DNA from: an uncultured Acidobacteriota bacterium
GTDB taxonomy: Bacteria > Acidobacteriota > Vicinamibacteria > Vicinamibacterales > CAVVIG01
Assembly: GCA_963718825.1 (NCBI GenBank)
Contig: CAVQZZ010000002.1
Span: 414,813-478,812, forward strand
Direction: 5' to 3'
DNA length: 64,000 bases
Part shown: positions 10,447 through 47,837 of the stretch, piece after piece
Layout: each line of letters opens with the position of its first letter
How positions within the stretch are numbered: position 1 is the stretch's first letter
Notes under the pieces: generated by a model
Told to the model about the DNA's origin: nothing
Databases searched by the model: none
The model's input: the letters and a program-made list of their open reading frames with translations, nothing else
Made by a program: the position numbers and the translations under genes

Positions 10447-12596
10447 TCAGCCGATGATGCGGAAGCCGACGAGCTCCGGCGAATCCTTCGGCACACCCTC
10501 GCCTGCCGCTTTGATCTCCAAGATGTACTCGCCGGGCGGCAAGGCAGACAGCGGAAGATCGAACTGCGGCTCGCCACCCGACGTGGCGGGCGGCGCGACC
10601 TGCAGCTCGTTGATCGGATCGCCGGCTCGGTTGAGCACGCGCGCGGTGATCTGCGGCGTCGTTCCGCCTGCCGCATACGCCGGCACGCGCACGAACAGCC
10701 GGTCGGTTCGGCTGAAGTCGCGCATCGCCACCGGCGCGGCGTCCTGATCCGCCTTGAGCTGCTGGAATTCGCGTACCGTGCGAGCGCGATAGATCGCGGG
10801 CGTGCCGAGGACCGTGGTCGGCGCGGTGAGATCGGGAACGGTGATCTCACGCATCTCGGTGTCGAGCACCTGGGACGACGTCCCTTCCACCGAGACACGA
10901 AGCTCCATCTTGCCCGGCGGCACTTCGAAGACCACGCGTGACGGTGTTCGCGGCGCTGCGGCCGGCGTCGCGCCGCTTCCCGACGGTCCCGCTCGTGCCG
11001 GCGGCTGGCGATGCTGCGCTCGCGACGACGCCTTCGGGAATCTTGCCGCGGAAATACGGCGCGCCATCGGCACCGACGGCCATCAACGACACGCGCGCGG
11101 GCTGATCGCGCTGCGCGTCAGCCGCCGGCGCGCGCCACGGGCTCCCACACGAACGTCACCTTCGTCTTGCCATTTTCCCCGCGCGACGTTCCGATCCACG
11201 TGCGGATGACCTGCGTGCGGCTCGGCCGGCTGACGGACGCGAGCGCATCGGTGACCGCTTTGGGCGGCCCGGGCTTCGGCTTGGCGGTCGCCCGCGCGGT
11301 TTCCGCCGCGGTCAGCGCCCAGTAGCCTTTTCGCGCGCGCACCTGGGTGCCGGACCGCTTTACGCGAACCTTGATCTCGTGGAACTTCCCGTCGGTCGGC
11401 GTCTGCGACGAGTTGTAGCCGATCAGATAGTACGCGCTGGTGTCGCGGACGATCTGCTTCATGGCCGTCGCAAGGTCGTTCCGGTTCACGATAGCGCGGC
11501 CGTCGCTCTGGTCTGAGAGCACACGCAGCGAATCCATGGTCGCGTTCAGGTACTGCCGATCGATCTGCGAGCTGACGTTCTGCTCGATGTCGAATTCACT
11601 GACCGCCAGCCCGCGCGGATCGACTGCGTAGATCGCGACGTTGTTCTTGTTCGCCGTGTCGTAGATCTGGCGCAGGTCGCTGTCGAGATCGAGCCCCGCC
11701 AGCCAGGACGCGCGGTCTTCGTTCGGATCGCCGATGCCCGCCATCGGATTGCCGGCACTTGGGTTCCCGTAGCCGGGCATCGTCGCGACCGGATTCCGCA
11801 GCTGCGGCGGCAGCATGTTGCTGAAGCCCTCGCTGACGAGAATCAGCGCCTTGCGTCCTTCCTTGAGCGAACCGAGGTGCGTGATCAACCCGCGAATGGC
11901 CGTCATCGAGACCTGATTGCGCACCTGCTCGACGGTCTCGGCCGGATAGTTCGCGTACTGCTCCTCGAATTGATTCTTCGGCGTGTATTCGAACTTGCGC
12001 CCGGTGAACTGCTGGATCGCTTTCACGATCGCGGCATGATTGCGGGTCATCCGTATCGAGGCGAGCGATTCGAGCGGGTACATGATGCCGACCATGTCGG
12101 TCGGCCCGAGCTGCGTGTCGACGAACTTCGCGATCGGCTCGCGGACGGCCATGCTCGCGCCGCGCCGGACGTGGTAGTCGTCCAGGAAGATCGCGAACAG
12201 CCGTACGTCTTCTTTCGCGGCCTCCGCCTCTTCGTCGTAATCGGTGCGGATTTCCTTCGGCGGTTCCTGCAGTGCGGCAGCGGTGCCGCCATCGAGCTTG
12301 ACCAGCTTGAAGGTTTCGATCTTCTGCGGCTTGCCGTCTTCGGTGACTTCGAAATCGCCCGGCTGCAGGTCGGAGACCGTGTTCCCGTTCTTGTCGGTGA
12401 TGATCACGTCGACGCGAACGAAGTTGATGCCGGCTTTGAATGTCGGCGGCTGCTGCGGCTGATCGCCGCTCGCCGGCGGAGGCTGCTGCTGCTGCTGTTG
12501 CGGCGGCTCGGCCGCCTGCTGGGCATCACCTCGCGCGGCCAGCACGACGACCGCGATGAGAGCGGTGATGACGACGGCTCGAAGAGCGCGAACCAT
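10447..12596 (-). CDS. VWFA-related acidobacterial-type exported protein, paralog of 8613-10440; about two frame breaks near 11100 and 10975
   Basis: ORF 11118-12596 has signal peptide, Q-rich linker, INFVRVDVIITDKNGNTVSDLQPGDFEVTEDGKPQ, LFAIFLDDYH, ALILVSEG, VAIYAVDPRGL. ORFs 10847-11092 and 10447-11073 supply a C-terminal domain colinear with the paralog. Confidence 0.8.
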
Positions 12597-32223: not shown

Positions 32224-33477
32224 TTATGGACTATGCGCTCGCGACAGGGCCGCCGTTCTTGCGGCCCACCAGGCCTCGAATTCCTTAAGCGCGCGGCCGA
32301 GCCTGACCGGCGCGGTCAGACGATCACGAACAACCTCCGACGTCTTGTAACCGTTGCCCGTGATGCAGACGACGATCGATTCGTCCCGCGGAATGACGCC
32401 GCGCGCGATGAGATCGATGGTCGCGGCGAGCGTCGTCCCGCCCGCGGGCTCGGTAAAGATGCCTTCGGTCTCGGCGAGAATCTGAATGGCGTCCACGATT
32501 TGCTCGTCCGATACGGCCGCGGCGCTCCCGCATGTGCTTCTGATGCTTTCGAGCACCTGATAGCCGTCCGCCGGGTTGCCGATCGCGATCGATTTCGCAA
32601 TGGTGTTCGGCCGCACGGGTTCGGGATGCTCGAGTCCCGCCTCCAGTGCATGCACGACCGGCGCGCAGCCTGCGGCCTGGGCAGCATACATTCGCGGCAG
32701 CTCGCCTTCGGCGAGACCGACTTCGCGCAGCTCGCGGAACGCACGAAGGATGCGCGGCAGCAGCGTTCCCCCGGCGACAGGTGAAATCACGTGGCCGGGA
32801 TAGCGCCAGCCAAGCTGCTCGACGATCTCGAAGCCGAGCGTTTTCGCACCCTCGGCGTAGTACGAGCGCAAATTGATGTTGACGAATCCCCACCCGTAGC
32901 GATCCGCCACCTGCGTACAGAGCCGGTTCACATCGTCGTAGTTGCCGGCGACCGCGAGCACTGTCGGCCGGAAGATCGCGGATCCGAGAATCTTGGCGGG
33001 TTCGAGACTATCGGGAATGAACACGCAACATTCGACGCCAAGCCTCGCCGCGTGCGCGGCGACGCTGTTCGCGAGATTGCCGGTCGATGCGCAGGCGAGC
33101 ACGTCGAACCCGAGTTCAACGGCGCGCGTCGCGGCGACCGACACCACGCGATCCTTGTACGACAGCGTCGGATGATTCACCGAGTCGTCCTTGATGTACA
33201 GCTCGCTGACGCCGAGCCGCTGCGCGAGTCGGTCGCACCGGACGAGCGGAGTAAACCCGGAGTTGAAACCAGTGCGCGGCTCTCCGGCGATCGGCAGCAA
33301 CTCGCGATAGCGCCAGAGGTTCTTCGGGCGGGCGCCGATCTCGGCTCGCGTAACGTTCACGGCGCTGTAGTCATACGCCGGCTCCAGCGGGCCGAGGCAG
33401 CGGTCGCAGACATAGAGCGCTTCCGCGGGGAACATCGTCTTGCATAGATGACATTGCAGTCCAATCAACGCGCTCAT
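32224..33477 (-). CDS. thrC: Threonine synthase
   Basis: Intact 417-aa ORF. N-terminal Cys cluster CHLC...CDRC. PLP-lysine context NHPTLSYKDRVVS. Confidence 0.93.
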   Translation of the reverse strand: MSALIGLQCHLCKTMFPAEALYVCDRCLGPLEPAYDYSAVNVTRAEIGARPKNLWRYRELLPIAGEPRTGFNSGFTPLVRCDRLAQRLGVSELYIKDDSVNHPTLSYKDRVVSVAATRAVELGFDVLACASTGNLANSVAAHAARLGVECCVFIPDSLEPAKILGSAIFRPTVLAVAGNYDDVNRLCTQVADRYGWGFVNINLRSYYAEGAKTLGFEIVEQLGWRYPGHVISPVAGGTLLPRILRAFRELREVGLAEGELPRMYAAQAAGCAPVVHALEAGLEHPEPVRPNTIAKSIAIGNPADGYQVLESIRSTCGSAAAVSDEQIVDAIQILAETEGIFTEPAGGTTLAATIDLIARGVIPRDESIVVCITGNGYKTSEVVRDRLTAPVRLGRALKEFEAWWAARTAALSRAHSP

Positions 33478-34603
33478 AACACCTCCGCGGCCAGATCGCG
33501 ACCGACGACAACACCATTGAAACCACCCAGACGTTCGGGGCTCCCGTCGAGAGCAGCGCCACGCTCGTCCATGCGTCGGACACCAACAACATGGCGCGGC
33601 GTCGACAGCGAGGGCGCCGGAACGATGGCCGCCCGATCTCGCGCGAGCGTCTGCAGGTCGCCGATGATCGCGACCGCCGTCGCATCGCCGCCTGCGCCCA
33701 GGCCGGATATCTGCACGTCGCCGCCAAACTCACCGGTCACGACAGCCGCGTTTGTTGCGAAGGTGGTTCGGCCGAAGAACGAATCGCGACGGACGTGCGC
33801 GGGAGCCACCCACGCGGTGAGCTCGCCGCCGCCGCGCTCGAAGGCCGCGAACGCCAGCTGACGGATCGTCGCACCCCGACGATGCGCGTCGGCGAAATCG
33901 ATGCTGGTGAGGTGCGCGACCGACCGCGTCTCGATCGCCGATGGAGCGACGCGCAGGCCGAAGGCGAGCGTGCATAGAATCGGCGAGCTTCGCGGCCGCG
34001 TCGCTGCCGTCGATATCGGCGCTCGGATCGGCCTCCGCGAAGCCCTGCGAGCGCGCCTCCTCCAACGCACTTCCCACCGAGCACCCGGCCGCGTCGATCC
34101 GCGAGAGGACGACATTGGTGGTGCCGTTCAGGATGCCGATGATGCGCTGAATGCGGTCGCCAGCGAGGCCTTCCGAGAATCGCTCGGACGATCGGCATCG
34201 CGCCGCCGACCGCGGCTTCGAACCGCAGCTGCCGGCCCTGGCGCGCCGCGAGCGCCTGAAGCGAGGGCCCGTGATGGGCCACCGCCTGTTTGTTGGAGGT
34301 GACGACCGACTTCCCCGCGAGCAAGCCGCGCCGGATCCAGTCCGCGGCGGGGTCGACACCGCCGACCGCCTCGACAATCACGTCGACGTTCGACGTCAGC
34401 ACGTCGTCGATCCGGTCGGTCCAGACGAGGTCGGGGTTCCCGGGGTGCTCGGCTTCGAAGATGCGCCGCTTGTACGGCGCGCGACGGTCGAAGATGTGTG
34501 TGAGCGCGAGGTTGGGGATGCGATGGTGAACGAGGCGGCGCGCGACGGCCGAGCCGACCGTGCCGAAACCGACGAGACCAATACGACAGGACGCGGGACT
34601 CAT
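33474..34603 (-). CDS. hom: Homoserine dehydrogenase; two frame breaks near 34195 and 33975
   Basis: IGLVGFGTVGSAV (NAD-binding), VVTSNKQAVAHHG, FEAAVGGAMPIV, then ILNGTTNVVLS...ARSQGFAEADPSADIDGSDAAAKLA, then an ACT-like C-terminus. Pieces in ORFs 33737-34651, 33730-34377 and 33474-34115. Confidence 0.9.
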
Positions 34604-34739
34604 GTGCTCCTCATCTCTCCCCGAACCGCGGTCCGGGGCAGGATTTGGCACCTGGACGCGGGCAATGCGCCCGCCGGTTGCCGTGGCGTCTTCGGGCCTG
34701 TCCCTCAGCCACTCTGGATGAAAAGTTCAGCTACTGATA

Positions 34740-34769
34740 TCTATACATCTACATAAGGTGATACGTCAA
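34740..34769 (-). promoter_or_regulatory. Sigma-70-like promoter candidate for hom-thrC (TTGACG-N18-TATAGA)
   Basis: Minus strand reads cTTGACGtatcaccttatgtagatgTATAGAtatc in an AT-rich patch about 135 nt upstream of the hom ATG. The -35 overlaps the sir stop codon. Confidence 0.3.
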
Positions 34770-36602
34770 GCCGAGCACTCTCCTTCCATGACCTCCGGCG
34801 CGAACGCCGCGTCCTCCGCGAGATCGATGAAGTCCTCCGCCTGCGGACCGCTGTCGGCAAACTGCTCCAGATCCACCAGCGCGCTCCTGACGACGGCGAG
34901 ATCGATACGGCCGAAAAATGTCGTCGCCGACTCCCCAGGTCCACGCTCGCGCGCATAGAGCGCGATCAGCCGCTCGACCGACGTCGGGAATCCGGCGCGC
35001 CGGAATTTTCGCGGCGAGCCGCGCAAAAGCGGCGCCGCCATCGACCATGCCGCCGCCGACCATGACGAAATACTGCGGGACCGCGCGGCCATGGACGCGC
35101 CGCACGCTGCCCTGAAACCCGAACGTGGCGATGTGATGCTGACCGCACCCATTCGGGCAGCCGCTGATCTTGATGCGGGCGCCGTCGGCGGCGGCAATGA
35201 GGTCCGGCCGCGAACGCAGGTGGTCTTCGAGCAGCCTGCCGAGCCCGCGTGACTGCGTGACCGCAAGGCGGCAGGTCTCGGCGCCCGGGCAGCTCGCGAC
35301 GTCGGCAACCGTCGCCGCCTCGGCAAGCCCGAGCCCCGCCGCCGCGAGCCGACGATAGAGCTGCCGCACGTCGGAGGCGTTGACCCATCGAAACAAGAGG
35401 TCCTGATCGAGCGTGACACGCACCGTCCCGTCGCCGTACGCGCACGCAAGCTCGCCGAGAACCCGGAGCTGCTCGCTCGAGAGATCGCCGAGCGGGACCG
35501 TGGCGACCGCGATCGAAAATCCAAATTGCTTTTGCGGCCGCACGTTCGTCGTTCGCCACCGCGAGTACATCTCGTCGCTCGAATTGAACACCGGCACGAT
35601 CACCGGCGTGAGGCCGGGCCCCGCGACTCGCCCCGCCCCCACGCGTGCGGCGACATAGCCGACCGAGGGCGACGATTCCGGCTCCCAGTCGGGCCGACTC
35701 TCGGCTGCCGGCGGCGCGATGTCGAGCGTCGGCACGGCACCGCGCAAACGGCACGCCGCGAGCGCGAGATCGTATTCCTCCCGCCACCGCGCCCAGCCGA
35801 GCGAGCGGATCATGAACTTCATGCGGTTCCGCTGCTTGTGCTGGTAATCGCCGAATCGCGCGAACACGGTGAGCACCGCTTCGGCCACCCGCAAGATCTC
35901 GGACGCCGGCAGGAATTCGTGCAGCACGCTCGCCGACGTCGGCATGATGGACGTGCCACCGCCGGCAATCACTCGGAACCCTCGGCTCTCGTCGCGGCCG
36001 AGCACCGCGTGAAACGCGAGATCGTTGATCGCGGCGGCGACGTGATCCTCGGGGCATCCCTCGAACGCAATCTTGAACTTGCGCGGCAACGTGGAACTGA
36101 GCGGGTGGCGCAGCAGGTACCGGGTCAGCGCTTCCGCGTACGGGGTCACGTCGAAGCGCTCGTCATGCGCGACGCCAGCATAAGGGCACGCGGTGATGTT
36201 GCGCACCGAGTTGCCGCACGCTTCTCGCGTCGTGAGGCCTGCGTCGGCAAGCCGCTGCATCGCCCGCTCGACATCGTGAAGCTTTACGAAATGGAATTGC
36301 AGATTCTGCCGCGTGGTGATGTGGCCGAACCCGCGCGAATAACGCTCGGCCACGTCTGCGAGCGCGCGGAGCTGATCGCCGGTCAGGATGCCCTGCGGGA
36401 TCTTGACGCGAAGCATCTGCGCGTCAGCAGCCTGCCGCTGTCCGTATGTGCCGCGGACGAGCCGGAATTGCCGCCACTGTTCCGCCGTCAACTCACCGCG
36501 CTCATACCGCTCGAGGGTGGTGACGAACTCGTCGATGTCCGCTTCGCTCGCGAACGATAGTCGTGCGCGGCCGAACGTCCGGGACTCGCTTGTTACCGTC
36601 AT
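34766..36602 (-). CDS. Assimilatory sulfite (or nitrite) reductase, ferredoxin-dependent siroheme/4Fe-4S type; frame break near 34990
   Basis: Two NIR_SIR halves (TTRQNLQFHF..., REACGNSVRNITACP) and cluster-binding CPGAETC ... GCPNGCGQH. The C-terminus continues in ORF 34766-35524 (FPTSVERLIALYARERGPGESATTFFGRI). Confidence 0.9.
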
Positions 36603-36864: not shown

Positions 36865-37560
36865 TCACAATCGTGCCGGGTCCACCGATGGCGACGTCCG
36901 TGCGATTGACGCGAGGTCGTCAAGCGTGCCGCGCCATACCTGTTGGTCCGCACGCGACGCGTCGACGACGACGGCCGCGGGCGTCCTGCGGCGCCAGCCG
37001 CATTCGATGAGCGCCCATGCGATCGGCTCGAGCCGGCGAAGGCCCATCAGGACGACGACCGTGACGGCATTCGGTTTCAACCCCTGAACCGCTGCTGAGA
37101 ACGCGGCGTCGTCGTGTCCACTCACGACGAGAAACGCGGACGACATGCCGCGGTGCGTCACAGGAATGCCCGCGAGCGCCGGAGCAGCGACGGCATTCGA
37201 CACACCCGGCACGACATCGAACGGAATGCCCGCCGCGCGCAGCGCGAGCGCTTCTTCCCCGCCTCGGCCGAATACGAACGGATCGCCGCCCTTCAACCGC
37301 ACGACGCGACGGCCGCGGCGCGCCGCGCGGACCAGCAGCGTGTTGATCTCCGGCTGGGTGAGCGCATGCCGGCCGGCGCGCTTGCCAACAAAAAACTTCT
37401 GCGCGCGACGCGCAAGTTTGAGGATGTGCGGATCCACGAGCGCGTCGTACAGAACGAGGTCGGCCGCCCGCAGCCGCGCGACCGCTCTGCGTGTAAGGAG
37501 CCCGGGATCGCCCGGTCCCGCGCCGACGAGTGAGACATGTCCTGGCATCGTTTTCACCAC
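36865..37560 (-). CDS. cobA: Uroporphyrinogen-III C-methyltransferase (SUMT); probable frame break near 36900 so true stop may be near 36757
   Basis: VSLVGAGPGDPGLLT, VVRLKGGDPFVFGRGGEE, GIPVTHRG. After GTLDDLA the +1 frame gives the expected GPGTIVIGDVAALDLVG. Confidence 0.9.
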   Translation of the reverse strand: MVKTMPGHVSLVGAGPGDPGLLTRRAVARLRAADLVLYDALVDPHILKLARRAQKFFVGKRAGRHALTQPEINTLLVRAARRGRRVVRLKGGDPFVFGRGGEEALALRAAGIPFDVVPGVSNAVAAPALAGIPVTHRGMSSAFLVVSGHDDAAFSAAVQGLKPNAVTVVVLMGLRRLEPIAWALIECGWRRRTPAAVVVDASRADQQVWRGTLDDLASIARTSPSVDPARL

Positions 37561-37563
37561 GGC

Positions 37564-38139
37564 TCACGCGCCTCCGCTCGATACCGGTTTCGCGTCCTCG
37601 CACCCGGCCGCGGGCTGTTCGTGGCGCCCGTCGTCGGATCTGGCGTACAGCCGGTTCAGCGCGTCGAGCAGCAATGGACGACGCGACTCGAATGGCACGC
37701 CGTCGCGCCGCCAGATCGCGCGCTGACCCTTGGCCTCTTCAACCCACTTCCCGACTTCGCTCGGCAGCACATCGTCGAGCGCTTCGCGCAGCAATCCCGT
37801 GAGCCCCGGCGCGGACCCTTCAGTGGATATCGCGATGGTGACGCCCTCACGACGGACGACGCCGCTCAGGTACGCCGTGGCGTGCGGCGGGTCGTCCGCG
37901 GCGTTCACAAAAACACGCCGCGTCTCGGCGGCACGCGCGACCGCCTCGTTTACCGCCGCATCAGCCGCGGTCACGACGAGCCATGCATCGTCGAGCTGGA
38001 TCGCGTCGAAGCGCGACGACGGCACGTCGAGGACGTCCGCGCCCGCTGCGACGAGCAACTCGCGTTTCGCCGCGGCGACCGCGCCGTCGCCGACGAGCAC
38101 GACGCGGCGTCCGGTGAGATTCAGAAAGAGAGGCAACAT
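37564..38139 (-). CDS. sirC: Precorrin-2 dehydrogenase / sirohydrochlorin ferrochelatase (siroheme synthase N-terminal-domain type)
   Basis: MLPLFLNLTGRRVVLVGDGAVAAAKRELLVAAGADV (Rossmann), VNAADDP, ISTEGSAPGL. The ORF track starts at TTG 38151. Confidence 0.85.
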   Translation of the reverse strand: MLPLFLNLTGRRVVLVGDGAVAAAKRELLVAAGADVLDVPSSRFDAIQLDDAWLVVTAADAAVNEAVARAAETRRVFVNAADDPPHATAYLSGVVRREGVTIAISTEGSAPGLTGLLREALDDVLPSEVGKWVEEAKGQRAIWRRDGVPFESRRPLLLDALNRLYARSDDGRHEQPAAGCEDAKPVSSGGA

Positions 38140-38157
38140 AAGCACGACCAACGACGG

Positions 38158-38195
38158 TACAAAGAAAAAGCCCGGGAAGCGCGAACCTCCCGGGC
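38158..38195 (-). terminator. Intrinsic terminator/attenuator hairpin in the leader of sirC-cobA-sir
   Basis: Minus strand: GCCCGGGAGG-TTCGCG-CTTCCCGGGC (10 bp including one G-U pair) followed by TTTTTCTTTGT. It ends ~10-20 nt before the sirC start, and no upstream gene on this strand needs terminating. Confidence 0.65.
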
Positions 38196-38225
38196 CTTGG
38201 TCTTAAGCGAGTGTGGTGAAAGACG

Positions 38226-38306
38226 TTACATGGTCGATCGCACGCACGCAGCTAGACGGTTGGCGCAGGGGCTCGCGGAGCCCTCGCAACAACAGCAGCT
38301 ACACAT
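38226..38306 (-). CDS. Putative Cys-rich leader peptide MCSCCCCEGSASPCANRLAACVRSTM
   Basis: ATG TGT AGC TGC TGT TGT TGC ... ATG TAA read directly from the reverse complement of 38226-38306. 7 Cys in 26 aa. The stop lies ~30 nt before the terminator stem. Confidence 0.5.
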   Translation of the reverse strand: MCSCCCCEGSASPCANRLAACVRSTM

Positions 38307-38359
38307 GCACGCGCTCTGACCCTTCACGATGTCACTACTTCTACTCTAAACTTGCCCTC

Positions 38360-40967
38360 ATGGTCAAACGCGCGCTCTCGACAGCCCTGCTTCTGTGCGT
38401 CTTCTGCGTGCCGTCGGCGCTCGCCGCGCGCCTCCCGACGACGGTCACGCCCGAGCACTACGATTTGAAGTTCGTGGTCGATGTGGCCAACGCGCGCTTC
38501 GACGGCAACGAAACGATCCGCGTTCAGGTCACGACGCCAACCAGCCAGGTCGTCATGAACGCGGCGGAGATCACGTTCGGCGACGTGACCATCGGCAACG
38601 GGTCGGCCGCGCAGAAGGCGACCGTGGCGCTGAACGCAGACGACCAGACCGCCACGCTTTCCGTCCCGAAGCCGCTCGCCGCCGGCCTCCATGAGATTCA
38701 CATCGCGTATCGCGGCGTGTTGAACGATCAGCTGCGCGGTTTCTATCTGAGCAAGAGCAAGACGCGCAACTACGCGGTCACGCAATTCGAAGCGACGGAC
38801 GCGCGGCGGGCGTTCCCTTGCTTCGACGAGCCAGCTTTCAAGGCGACGTTCGCGGTCACGCTCGTGATCGACAAGCGCGACATCGCGATTTCGAACGGTA
38901 AGGTGACGTCCGACACACCCGGTCCGGGGGCGGAGCAACACACGGTCGTGTTCGCGCCCTCCCCCAAGATGTCGTCGTATCTCGTCGCAATGGCCGTCGG
39001 CGATTTCGAATGCCTCAGCGGCAGTGCCGACAACGTGCCGATTCGGATATGCACGACGCCGGACAAGAAGAATATGGCCGAGCTCGCGCTGCAATCGGCG
39101 GAGCAGATCCTGAAGTTCTACAACAGCTATTACGCCATCAAATATCCGTTCGGAAAGCTCGACGTGCTCGCCGTGCCTGATTTCGCGGCCGGCGCGATGG
39201 AGAACACCGCCGCCATCTTTTACCGCGAGACCGATCTGCTCGCCGAAACGAACGGCGCGTCGGTGCGGACGCGAAAGACCATCGCGTCGGTCCTGGCCCA
39301 CGAAATGGCGCACCAATGGTTCGGCGATCTCGTCACGATGCGATGGTGGGACGACATCTGGTTGAACGAAGGGTTCGCGACGTGGATGGCGAACAAGCCG
39401 CTCGCCGCCGCCCATCCCGAGTGGAACGTCGCCGTCGACGAGGCGCTCGAGAACCAGACCGCGCTCGCGCTCGACTCGCTGAAGGCCACGCGCCCCATTC
39501 ACGCCGCCGCGAATACGCCGGCCGAGATCGACGAGGCATTCGACGCAATCGCCTATCAGAAAGGCGCCGCCGTGCTGCGCATGATCGAGAGCTACGTCGG
39601 CGAAGAATCATTTCGCAAAGGCGTCAACGGCTACCTGCAGGCGCACGCGTACGGGAACGCCGCAGCGCCCGACTTCTGGACGGCAATCGCGGCGGCGGCC
39701 GGCAAACCCGTGGACAAGATCATGCCGACGTTCGTGAATCAGCCCGGCGTTCCGCTCGTGACGGTATCGGTGAGCTGTGACGCGGCAAAGACCACGACCC
39801 GCGGCGCGTTGACGCAAAATCGCTTTACGCTCGGCGCGCGCGTCGAACGAGCGCTGGGACATTCCCGTGTGCCCGAAAGGCGAGGGATCGGATAAACCGG
39901 GCACGTGCGCGATCGTCGACAAGGCCGAACAGGTCGTGCCGCTCGCCCACGGCTGTCCATCCTGGGTGTTCATCAACGGCGGGGGTCGCGGGTACTTCCG
40001 GACCGCGTATCCGCCGGAGATGCTGCGGGCGCTCGCGCCGAACATCGAAAGCGGGCTCACGGCGCCCGAGCGGATTGTGTTGATGGACGACGAGTGGGCG
40101 CTCGTTCGCGCCGGACGGCACACGGTCGGCGACTATCTGACGCTCGCAAGCGGCTTCAGCGCCGAGACCTCCGCGGGCGCGCTCGGCGTCGTGACCGATC
40201 GGCTCGGAATGATGCACGCGTATCTGACGACCGACGCCGATCGGCCGAAGCTCGAAGCGTTCATGCAACGCCTGCTGCAGCCGATCATGCAGCGCGTGGG
40301 TTTCGCGGCGAGCCCGTCGGATTCGGACGACCGTCGCGAGCTCCGCGCCGTCGTCGTCGGCAGCCTCGGACGCAGCGGCAACGATCCTACGGTCGTCGAG
40401 CAGGCGCGGAGCACGTTGACGGCAGCTTTGAACGGCGGCCCTCCGCTCGACCCGACGATGGCGACGACGATCACGCGGGTTGCGGCTGCGCACGGCGACG
40501 CGACGCTGTTCGACGCGCTGGCGGCCGCGGCCGAGCGCGCGAAGTCTCCTGAAGACCATTACCGCTATCTGAACGCCCTCAGCGAGTTCACCGAACCGGG
40601 GCTAATGGATCGCGCGTTGAAGATGTCGCTGTCGCCGGAAATGCGCAATCAGGATACCGCGCTGTACCTGGCACAATTTCTCGGGAACCCCGCCGTCAAC
40701 GCGCGCGCGTGGGCATTCGTCAAGCAGAACTGGACGGTGCTCGCGCCGAAGATCACGATTTTCGGCGGCGATACGAACATGGTCGGCGCGCTCGGATCGT
40801 TCTGCGATGCGGCGTCACGCGACGACATCGTGGCTTTTTTCGCGGCGCACAAGCTGCCGAGCGCCGCGCGCGGAATTCAGCAGACCATCGAGACGATCAA
40901 TAACTGCATCGCGCTCAAACAGCAGCAGCAGCCCGCGCTGGCGGCGTGGCTCGACCGCGCACGGTAG
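38360..40967 (+). CDS. Exported M1-family aminopeptidase (aminopeptidase N-like); frame break near 39840
   Basis: Signal peptide MVKRALSTALLLCVFCVPSALA. GAMEN exopeptidase motif. HEMAHQWFGDLVTMRWWDDIWLNEGFA (HExxH-x18-E). The ERAP1-like C-terminal domain continues in ORF 39867-40967. Confidence 0.9.
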
Positions 40968-47761: not shown

Positions 47762-47837
47762 GCCGGCGTAGCTCAGTTGGTAGAGCAGCTGATTCGTAAT
47801 CAGCAGGTCACCAGTTCAAGTCTGGTCGCCGGCTCCA
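47762..47837 (+). tRNA. tRNA-Thr, anticodon CGT, encoded CCA
   Basis: Cloverleaf by hand: acceptor GCCGGCG/CGCCGGC, D arm GCTC-AGTTGGTA-GAGC, anticodon arm GCTGA-TTCGTAA-TCAGC, variable AGGTC, T arm ACCAG-TTCAAGT-CTGGT, discriminator T, CCA. Confidence 0.95.

Follow-up and report, generated by a model that had tools for sequence, protein, structure and literature searches.

Background

Short open reading frames (ORFs) carrying cysteine (Cys) codons have been published as leaders of cysteine-related genes in mycobacteria, other Actinobacteria, Rhodobacterales and Deinococcus. Comparative genomics found ORFs with runs of Cys codons upstream of the cysteine-synthesis operons of Actinobacteria (2005, PMC1262725), and the leaderless polycysteine short ORFs of mycobacteria have been named the "Cys ribulon" (Canestrari et al. 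2020, 10.1101/834739; Mol Microbiol 114:93). Those of Mycobacterium smegmatis are, by experiment, cysteine-responsive translational attenuators (10.1101/834739), in which pausing at the Cys codons remodels downstream RNA pairing and so raises expression of the operon at low cysteine (10.1101/834739). Upstream of cysS, a Cys-codon transcription attenuator with an intrinsic terminator, uORFC-8-2, has been predicted in Rhodobacterales (Brewer et al. 2021, PMC8632094), and for cysS of Deinococcus deserti a predicted attenuator has a two-Cys leader peptide on a leaderless transcript (de Groot et al. 2014, PMC4007540). The present study concerns a candidate element of this general kind in a 64,000-nucleotide (nt) stretch of DNA from an uncultured Acidobacteriota bacterium (assembly GCA_963718825.1, contig CAVQZZ010000002.1, positions 414,813 to 478,812), called the window below. 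It lies on the minus strand, directly ahead of three genes for siroheme synthesis and sulfite reduction, sirC-cobA-sir, and is very likely a ribosome-mediated leader-peptide transcription attenuator that would sense charged tRNA-Cys and control read-through into these genes. An earlier annotation of the stretch (the original prediction) had proposed a ribosome-stalling attenuator in the style of trp, his and leu, keyed to Cys-tRNA charging, a proposal that conservation, mutually exclusive structures and covariation of the antiterminator now support.

A conserved run of cysteine codons upstream of sirC

The leader region of the window was read on the minus strand, 37900-38600. Its predicted sensor is a run of six Cys codons within eight (TGC atg TGT agc TGC TGT TGT TGC; 38286..38309, minus strand), conserved in relatives, in a short ORF that sits between conserved -35 and -10 boxes and sirC, on the same strand as that gene. 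Over all six frames of the window there are six runs of at least four Cys codons in seven, and the one in the leader is the only intergenic one. The other five were considered as further members of a regulon and rejected, being out of frame inside long ORFs. At 12484 on the plus strand a (GCT/CTG)n repeat, which in one of its frames spells six Cys codons, is enclosed by long ORFs on either strand; it lies near the 5' end of a minus-strand gene with a signal-peptide-like N-terminus and is not a leader.

Homologues of the sir-encoded reductase are found by the hundred, at 80-91% identity, in soil metagenomes and in metagenome-assembled genomes (MAGs) of Acidobacteria. A genome scan limited to one genome per species gave 80 loci, nearly all from Vicinamibacterales / Acidobacteriota subdivision 6. 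When Cys runs (again at least four Cys codons in seven) were counted on both strands of 81 sequences, these loci plus the window, their density over the 300 nt before sirC (44 in 16.4 kb) was 72 times that of the remaining sequence (37 in 998 kb). Of the 55 sequences (loci plus window) in which a sirC N-terminus could be recognised, 42 have such a run upstream. Most genome loci have a Cys-run short ORF at the same distance upstream of sir as the window has, and about 45 of the 80 combine such an ORF with a strong terminator and a sirC gene within 5-40 nt. For the metagenomes a search pattern was derived from the leader (GAGCCCCTGCGCC, 50-80 nt, GGCCCGGGAGG); it returned 118 stretches. The full architecture appears in about 100 of these: immediately upstream, 103 of 111 show 5-9 Cys codons in a single frame; a terminator 3' arm with a T tract is present in 102; and in 102 of 115 the sirC N-terminal motif LLPLFLNL follows. 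Both genome loci and soil metagenomes conserve the Cys run and the hairpins, for which the original prediction looked to relatives, and by comparison with about 160 related loci the leader is a real, conserved element, its run kept in frame in some 150.

The same counts bear on the simplest alternative, a chance ORF in a GC-rich spacer beside an ordinary terminator. It is true that five other Cys-codon runs arise by chance in the other frames of the window; all five, however, lie inside long ORFs, and the position-specific enrichment over so many loci refutes an accident, which we regard as having next to no likelihood.

Several features indicate that the run is constrained at the codon level. 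The frame is preserved through runs of 4-9 Cys codons in about 45 genome loci and 103 of 111 metagenome loci, insertions and deletions within the aligned runs are multiples of 3 nt, and TGT and TGC interchange. TGT, expected by the original prediction to be the minor Cys codon, is just that in genes (in window genes it accounts for 4 of 31 Cys codons, in sir orthologues for 47 of 528; a share of 0.09-0.13), yet in two sets of leaders it makes up 147 of 281 (0.52) and 382 of 684 (0.56) Cys codons. Because the run stays in frame, changes length by whole codons, exchanges TGT for TGC and is enriched in the rare codon, it is, as judged from these alignments, constrained as codons. The run is kept amid unrelated flanking peptides (MANICCCCCQCCQGS, MSCCCCCCARAH, MCCCCICICCRTR, VSALTICCCCCPGP), and subfamilies that have diverged at the nucleotide level (L047, L059 and L075) specifically retain the Cys codons.

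Probable start codon and promoter of the leader ORF

The original prediction described a 27-codon ORF, from ATG 38306 to TAA 38226 on the minus strand (MCSCCCCEGSASPCANRLAACVRSTM), with seven Cys codons, five of them in codons 2-7 and three of them TGT. All of this is present, but ATG 38306 appears to be an internal Met codon: the corresponding codon is GCA, GCG, TTG or GTG in L001, L003, L004, L006 and L008, so that Met gives way to Ala, Leu or Val in relatives. As it is not conserved we rejected it as the main start, and keep it as a possible secondary start in the same frame. The conserved start is a GTG. ORFs of the close family open with GTG-ATY-GGT, and where the GTG has been lost (L002, L005, L012, L013) the next codon gives ATG-GGT. 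The window ORF therefore probably starts at GTG 38327 and runs to TAA 38226 (38226..38327, minus strand), with 33 codons and eight Cys (VKGQSACMCSCCCCEGSASPCANRLAACVRSTM).

A -35-like box, TTGACC (38362..38367, minus strand), overlaps the start codon of the divergent gene, which encodes an M1 peptidase. The signal peptide of that protein begins at ATG 38360, so the leader spacer is truly intergenic. The -10-like box TAGAAG (38338..38343, minus strand), 18 nt past the -35 box, aligns with TAAAAA/TACAA of relatives. In a 16-sequence alignment CTTGAC is invariant, and all close relatives show CTTGAC, 17-18 nt and TAAAAA/TACAA. More widely, a TTGAC-like box occupies the equivalent position in 41 of 42 leaders scanned, and the promoter geometry fits in about 35. 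A strict sigma-70 promoter scan gave no match at the leader, where the conserved -10 boxes (TAAAAA, TAGAAG) have no final T. From the -10-like box to the start codon is 10 nt in the window and about 6-14 nt in most loci. With a start codon only a few nt past this box, and with no Shine-Dalgarno sequence, the short ORF is probably leaderless or else begins only a few nt into the transcript.

A terminator at the head of a sulfate-assimilation operon

Beyond the ORF lies an intrinsic terminator hairpin (regions 3 and 4; 38167..38198, minus strand), called by a terminator scanner as a 14-bp stem with 8 G-C pairs. Its 5' arm is at 38198-38185, its loop at 38184-38181 and its 3' arm at 38180-38167; the stem is followed by TTCTTTGT, with the U tract UUUUUCUUU at 38161..38169 (minus strand). 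The GC-rich hairpin named in the original prediction (GCCCGGGAGG/CTTCCCGGGC, then TTTTTCTTTGT) is there, and the scanner's 14-bp call, 38198-38167, was made independently of it. The hairpin energy is -24.8 kcal/mol in the window and -18 to -33 kcal/mol in relatives, which likewise have U tracts. The stem is paired in 99% of cells in relatives, and GC-rich stems of 11-14 bp with a U tract directly after them occur in essentially every member. A dispersed repeat or mobile terminator was considered and rejected: the window holds a single copy, and the exact stem pattern matches in 9 of the 80 loci, with one copy each, always upstream of sirC.

The first gene thought to be regulated, sirC (precorrin-2 dehydrogenase / siroheme synthase N-terminal domain), occupies 37564..38139 on the minus strand, and its N-terminus, MLPLFLNLTGRR, agrees with relatives. 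Its ATG, at 38139, is 21 nt past the terminator U tract. Across members sirC begins 5-40 nt after the terminator (5-25 nt in the window equivalents L001-L015), a gap that cannot hold a separate promoter; transcription of the operon must therefore pass the terminator. Next on the minus strand come cobA (uroporphyrinogen-III C-methyltransferase; 36865..37560; TIGR01469 at 258 bits, above cutoff) and a siroheme reductase of the NirA/Sir family (34749..36602; assigned from Pfam, NCBIfam and context). Pfam and NCBIfam thus confirm the gene order sirC-cobA-sir of the original prediction (38139-37564, 37560-36865 and 36602-34749). In two more distant Vicinamibacteria, L040 and L042, a Cys-run short ORF and terminator (L040 1070-1147, peptide MHARCMCCCSQ...; L042 915-1007, peptide MSCCCCCCARAH...) instead precede cysH (3'-phosphoadenosine 5'-phosphosulfate reductase) and cysC (adenosine 5'-phosphosulfate kinase), at the head of cysH-cysC-sirC-cobA-sir. 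This ties the leader to sulfate assimilation beyond sirC alone; going by these arrangements, it tracks the 5' end of the sulfate-assimilation operon.

The terminator also separates the attenuator reading from one in which the Cys-codon ORF acts mainly on translation, as in mycobacteria, and the hairpin governs ribosome access to sirC or mRNA stability. The only polycysteine short ORF to have been dissected experimentally, Ms5788A, does work by translational attenuation, and since sirC starts 5-25 nt past the hairpin without a Shine-Dalgarno sequence (none is found in the window or at the equivalent positions in L001-L015), the state of the 3' arm and U tract could influence initiation. But the hairpin is a textbook intrinsic terminator in essentially every member, the sirC start codon lies outside it, so that nothing is sequestered, and canonical terminators are otherwise rare here (0 in 5.2 kb of the region, where shuffles give 3.2). 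Mainly translational control is accordingly improbable, though the two modes are not mutually exclusive. As to initiation in this neighbourhood, the M1 peptidase gene likewise has no Shine-Dalgarno sequence, and the homoserine dehydrogenase gene (hom) downstream is preceded by GAGGAG; the U-rich tract may serve as a landing site for ribosomes on sirC once antitermination frees the 3' arm.

Alternative pairings of the leader RNA

The attenuator reading calls for two exclusive pairings of the same RNA. Region 1 (GGGCUC, 38278..38283, minus strand) forms the 5' arm of a hairpin that immediately follows the Cys run; a ribosome stalled at the last Cys codons would cover this arm. This small hairpin, GGGCTC-CGC-GAGCCC, had been pointed out in the original prediction and is present at 38283-38269; a GC-rich hairpin at the same point recurs in diverged subfamilies with differing sequences. 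Region 2 (CGCGAGCCCCUGCGCCA, 38261..38277, minus strand) can pair either with region 1 and the Cys-run strand, forming hairpin P1, or with the 5' arm of the terminator. Left unconstrained, the leader folds into a long P1 hairpin, the Cys-run half of the ORF against its other half, together with the terminator (-76.6 kcal/mol). The leader is also more stably folded than its dinucleotide shuffles (z -2.5). When the Cys run is masked by a ribosome and the transcript ends short of the 3' arm, 38276-38262 (CGCGAGCCCCUGCGCC) pairs with 38196-38181 (GGCCCGGGAGGUUCGC). Mutually exclusive terminator and antiterminator structures, as anticipated, thus both exist in the folds and depend on the modelled position of the ribosome.

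The duplex of region 2 with the terminator 5' arm has an energy of -24.8 kcal/mol in the window, compared with -17.4 +/- 2.4 kcal/mol for shuffles, and the pairing 38276-38262/38196-38181 holds in 97.9% of cells of the 16-sequence alignment, compared with 18-55% when the partner is slid. The pair counts for regions 1-2-3 are 97.9% and 90.6%. In L009 all three regions are altered together and the antiterminator pairing gains one compensatory change (over both pair counts, two L009 changes are scored as compensatory pairs). The antiterminator first proposed, GCGCCAACC with GGTTCGCGC (38266-38258/38186-38178), is another matter: its 8-of-9 complementarity is present in the window but is not conserved, with 56.9% of cells paired, no better than some slid controls, and it was rejected in favour of the pairing above.

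Comparisons across subfamilies go further. In 48 pairs of short ORF and terminator the best duplex starts about 10 nt past the last Cys codon, with a mean z of -1.7 against shuffles. In a swap control, leaders paired with their own terminator had a residual of -2.46, compared with +0.46 for dissimilar foreign terminators, and 40 of 47 leaders fell below the median. Subfamilies with quite different stems (L047, L053, L059, L064, L073-75) each have a matching strand. Covariation of the antiterminator with the terminator, proposed as a check at the outset, is accordingly seen across subfamilies and is weak within the close family.

The core of region 2, GAGCCCCUGCGCC, is kept through changes of reading frame. 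Most members read it as SPCA; in L001, L125 and L177 the frame gives EPLR, and in L008 and L121 RAPAP. Because the same nucleotides are read in three frames, region 2 is, on this comparison, constrained as RNA. This bears directly on the idea of a self-standing gene, a neighbour of sirC only by coincidence, that has a terminator of its own and makes a functional Cys-rich micropeptide (metal or redox binding). Within the close family the peptide sequence is indeed conserved, and leader peptides with functions in trans are known, e.g. peTrpL. Between subfamilies, however, it is not conserved outside the Cys run, and the part after the run keeps its nucleotides and not its frame; sirC has no promoter space before it and depends on read-through; in longer operons the element stands ahead of cysH-cysC-sirC; and the enrichment in rare codons is opposite to that expected of an expressed protein gene. 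A separate micropeptide gene is thus a very unlikely account.

Equally small weight falls on the converse idea, an untranslated structured leader (a riboswitch or a protein-binding RNA) in which the UGY repeats are structural. The Cys-run strand does lie within P1, where it pairs with CAAUGG/CAACCG and GCGUGC, and the neighbouring operon has a true riboswitch. Yet start and stop codons, frame and 3-nt length changes are maintained, the strongly diverged subfamilies L047, L059 and L075 all keep the Cys codons, and the RNA consists of hairpins only, with no complex conserved core resembling an aptamer. Nor is there a match to an Rfam family: scans at the gathering thresholds of the window and six related loci found nothing at the leader, returning only the SAM (S-adenosylmethionine) riboswitch and a tRNA, and a permissive Rfam 15 scan of 37800-38700 (E up to 10) gave only sub-threshold miRNA and Mcr7 hits (E >=0.2, 14.6-16.3 bits). 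The original prediction was not aware of a curated Cys-leader family. None matched in Rfam; in the literature, the Cys-codon leader ORFs cited above are precedents.

Proposed mechanism and its standing

This locus has all the sequence-level features that define leader-peptide attenuators. In the mechanism we propose, transcription from the TTGACC-18 nt-TAGAAG promoter would give a 5' end at the GTG of the 33-codon ORF or a few nt before it. With Cys-tRNA plentiful, the ribosome would clear the six-Cys-codon cluster, and region 1 and the Cys-run strand would re-pair with region 2 (GAGCCCCUGCGCC) behind it. Region 3 would then be free for region 4, the 14-bp terminator would form with its U tract, and transcription would stop 21 nt before sirC. 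With Cys-tRNA scarce, the ribosome would halt at the Cys codons and enclose region 1; region 2 would stay free and capture the emerging 5' arm of the terminator, no terminator would form, and RNA polymerase would read into the operon. The rare TGT codons would probably sharpen the stall. The switch would in this way match the role of the operon, in which siroheme synthesis and sulfite reduction would supply sulfide for cysteine.

A number of observations count against this account. The leader is not universal: L017, from a Luteitalea sp. MAG (~2330-2480), has a TTGACC/TACTTG promoter and the GGCCCGGGAGG terminator before sirC with no Cys codons in its leader, and is either a decayed member or a differently regulated one, while L029 and L034 have no leader at all. 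No Shine-Dalgarno sequence precedes the short ORF, and leaderless initiation in this lineage is a presumption. Our account infers from sequence where transcription starts, that the ORF is translated, that ribosomes stall and how the system responds to cysteine. Formal covariation is weak in the close family, where the terminator stem shows zero double changes, most antiterminator pairs are invariant and 31 of 500 shuffles reach the observed antiterminator score; for this reason we rely on the diverged subfamilies and the swap control instead. In full-length RNA with the ribosome masked, the terminator (-40 to -50 kcal/mol) is stronger than the antiterminator (-36 to -38 kcal/mol), so the switch must be kinetic; in the Escherichia coli trp leader, too, the terminator is the stronger of the two. 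With a ribosome at the stop codon, region 2 is left uncovered, and one constrained fold of the nascent RNA still favours the antiterminator, so that termination under Cys sufficiency would depend on fast re-pairing of regions 1 and 2. Finally, every NCBIfam equivalog scores the reductase below its cutoff. We read it as an assimilatory sulfite reductase by operon context, and the presence of this type of leader at the head of cysH-cysC-sirC-cobA-sir supports that reading of the NirA-like protein.

Neighbouring genes and RNA elements

A second RNA element follows the operon. Past the sir stop codon, and ahead of genes for homoserine dehydrogenase and a threonine-synthase-like protein, stands a SAM-I riboswitch (RF00162; 34608-34724, minus strand; 84 bits, E 2e-18); L004, L012 and L022 have the same order after sir. 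In the window, the interval from sir to the riboswitch showed no terminator. If the predicted role of the leader is right, the cluster carries two RNA sensors for sulfur amino acids in tandem. Control by SAM points to a role of the hom/thrC-like pair in making methionine and not threonine; in Streptomyces lividans, too, a SAM riboswitch stands before "threonine biosynthesis" genes (PMC8079986). Homoserine dehydrogenase is split in the window (33474-34651, minus strand), with an N-terminal domain ORF (34651-33737) and a C-terminal domain ORF (34115-33474) in overlapping frames, either by a frameshift (a pseudogene) or by an assembly error. Since the riboswitch fills the sequence up to 34608, translation probably begins at ATG 34603, which follows GAGGAG.

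In L047 a second Cys-containing short ORF (MCSGRCACPCCRGEVGATWQMK; L047 63-131), with a terminator of -19 kcal/mol, precedes thrB (homoserine kinase) and a thrC-like gene; the sirC leader of that locus follows shortly after these genes. The extra short ORF may be another Cys-responsive leader or may have arisen by chance. Within the coding region of sirC in the window, a second terminator-like hairpin (37913-37936, minus strand; 9 bp, then TTTTGTG) is probably there by chance. The only tRNA gene of the window is a tRNA-Thr (CGT; 47762-47837, plus strand).

Comparison with known systems

In the literature consulted, largely outside subscription journals, we found no description of such a leader in Acidobacteria or on sirC/sir operons. 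It is fairly probable that a terminator/antiterminator sensor of Cys-tRNA, itself probably leaderless and tuned by rare codons, arose independently in Vicinamibacterales and forms part of a two-tier control with SAM-I that uses RNA only. If so, this would be the first such attenuator for sulfur-assimilation genes and the first leader-peptide attenuator described in Acidobacteriota, with Cys-tRNA governing sulfide supply and SAM the homoserine branch. Acidobacteriota are among the most abundant soil bacteria and their regulation is almost uncharted; the element offers a concrete candidate regulator of sulfate assimilation in Vicinamibacterales. The roughly 150 natural variants, in number of Cys codons, codon choice and stem sequence, lend themselves to the study of how attenuators are tuned, and the family, which RNA and short-ORF annotation resources currently miss, could be added to them.

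The classical leaders of Proteobacteria (trpL, hisL, leuL, thrL, ilvL, pheL) have the same design, a short ORF rich in codons for the product followed by segments that pair 1:2, 2:3 and 3:4, and the trp and ilvB leaders of Actinobacteria belong to the same class, their operons being reached by read-through only. The leader's use of TGT is comparable to that of the rare CUA codons in leuL. Differences from these attenuators lie in what would be sensed (cysteine), in the targets (genes for siroheme synthesis and sulfite reductase), in the phylum, and in an ORF with no Shine-Dalgarno sequence whose start, 7-14 nt from the -10 box, is probably leaderless; there is no sequence similarity and no Rfam match. 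Compared with trp, the stop codon here is about 35 nt past region 2, so that a terminating ribosome leaves region 2 uncovered.

Among Cys-codon leaders, uORFC-8-2 and the Deinococcus leader have two Cys codons, act on cysS and belong to other phyla, whereas the present family has 6-9 Cys codons and stands before sulfate-assimilation genes. The tandem Cys codons of uORFC-8-2 fall near codons 14-15 upstream of cysS, and those described here begin at codon 7 upstream of sirC (or cysH); by this comparison the element is not a member of the uORFC-8-2 cysS motif. The actinobacterial leaders of 2005 lack a terminator hairpin and were proposed to depend on Rho (PMC1262725); here there is an explicit terminator/antiterminator pair. 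Like the short ORFs of mycobacteria, the leader is unannotated and has consecutive Cys codons (at least two in the mycobacterial definition, a length exceeded here), which would lie at the 5' end of cysteine-related mRNAs. In contrast to them it has a canonical intrinsic terminator, no Shine-Dalgarno sequence to mask and an unmasked sirC start, and it comes from another phylum with other sequences; theirs are experimentally proven, while the Acidobacteriota element is predicted from sequence. Because a terminator is present and no ribosome-binding site is masked, its architecture is not that of the mycobacterial translational type. Sensing through Cys codons would thereby extend from the translational control of mycobacteria to a textbook transcription-termination switch. 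No existing concept is overturned: the leader is a new phylum and a new target operon for an already known Cys-codon leader principle.

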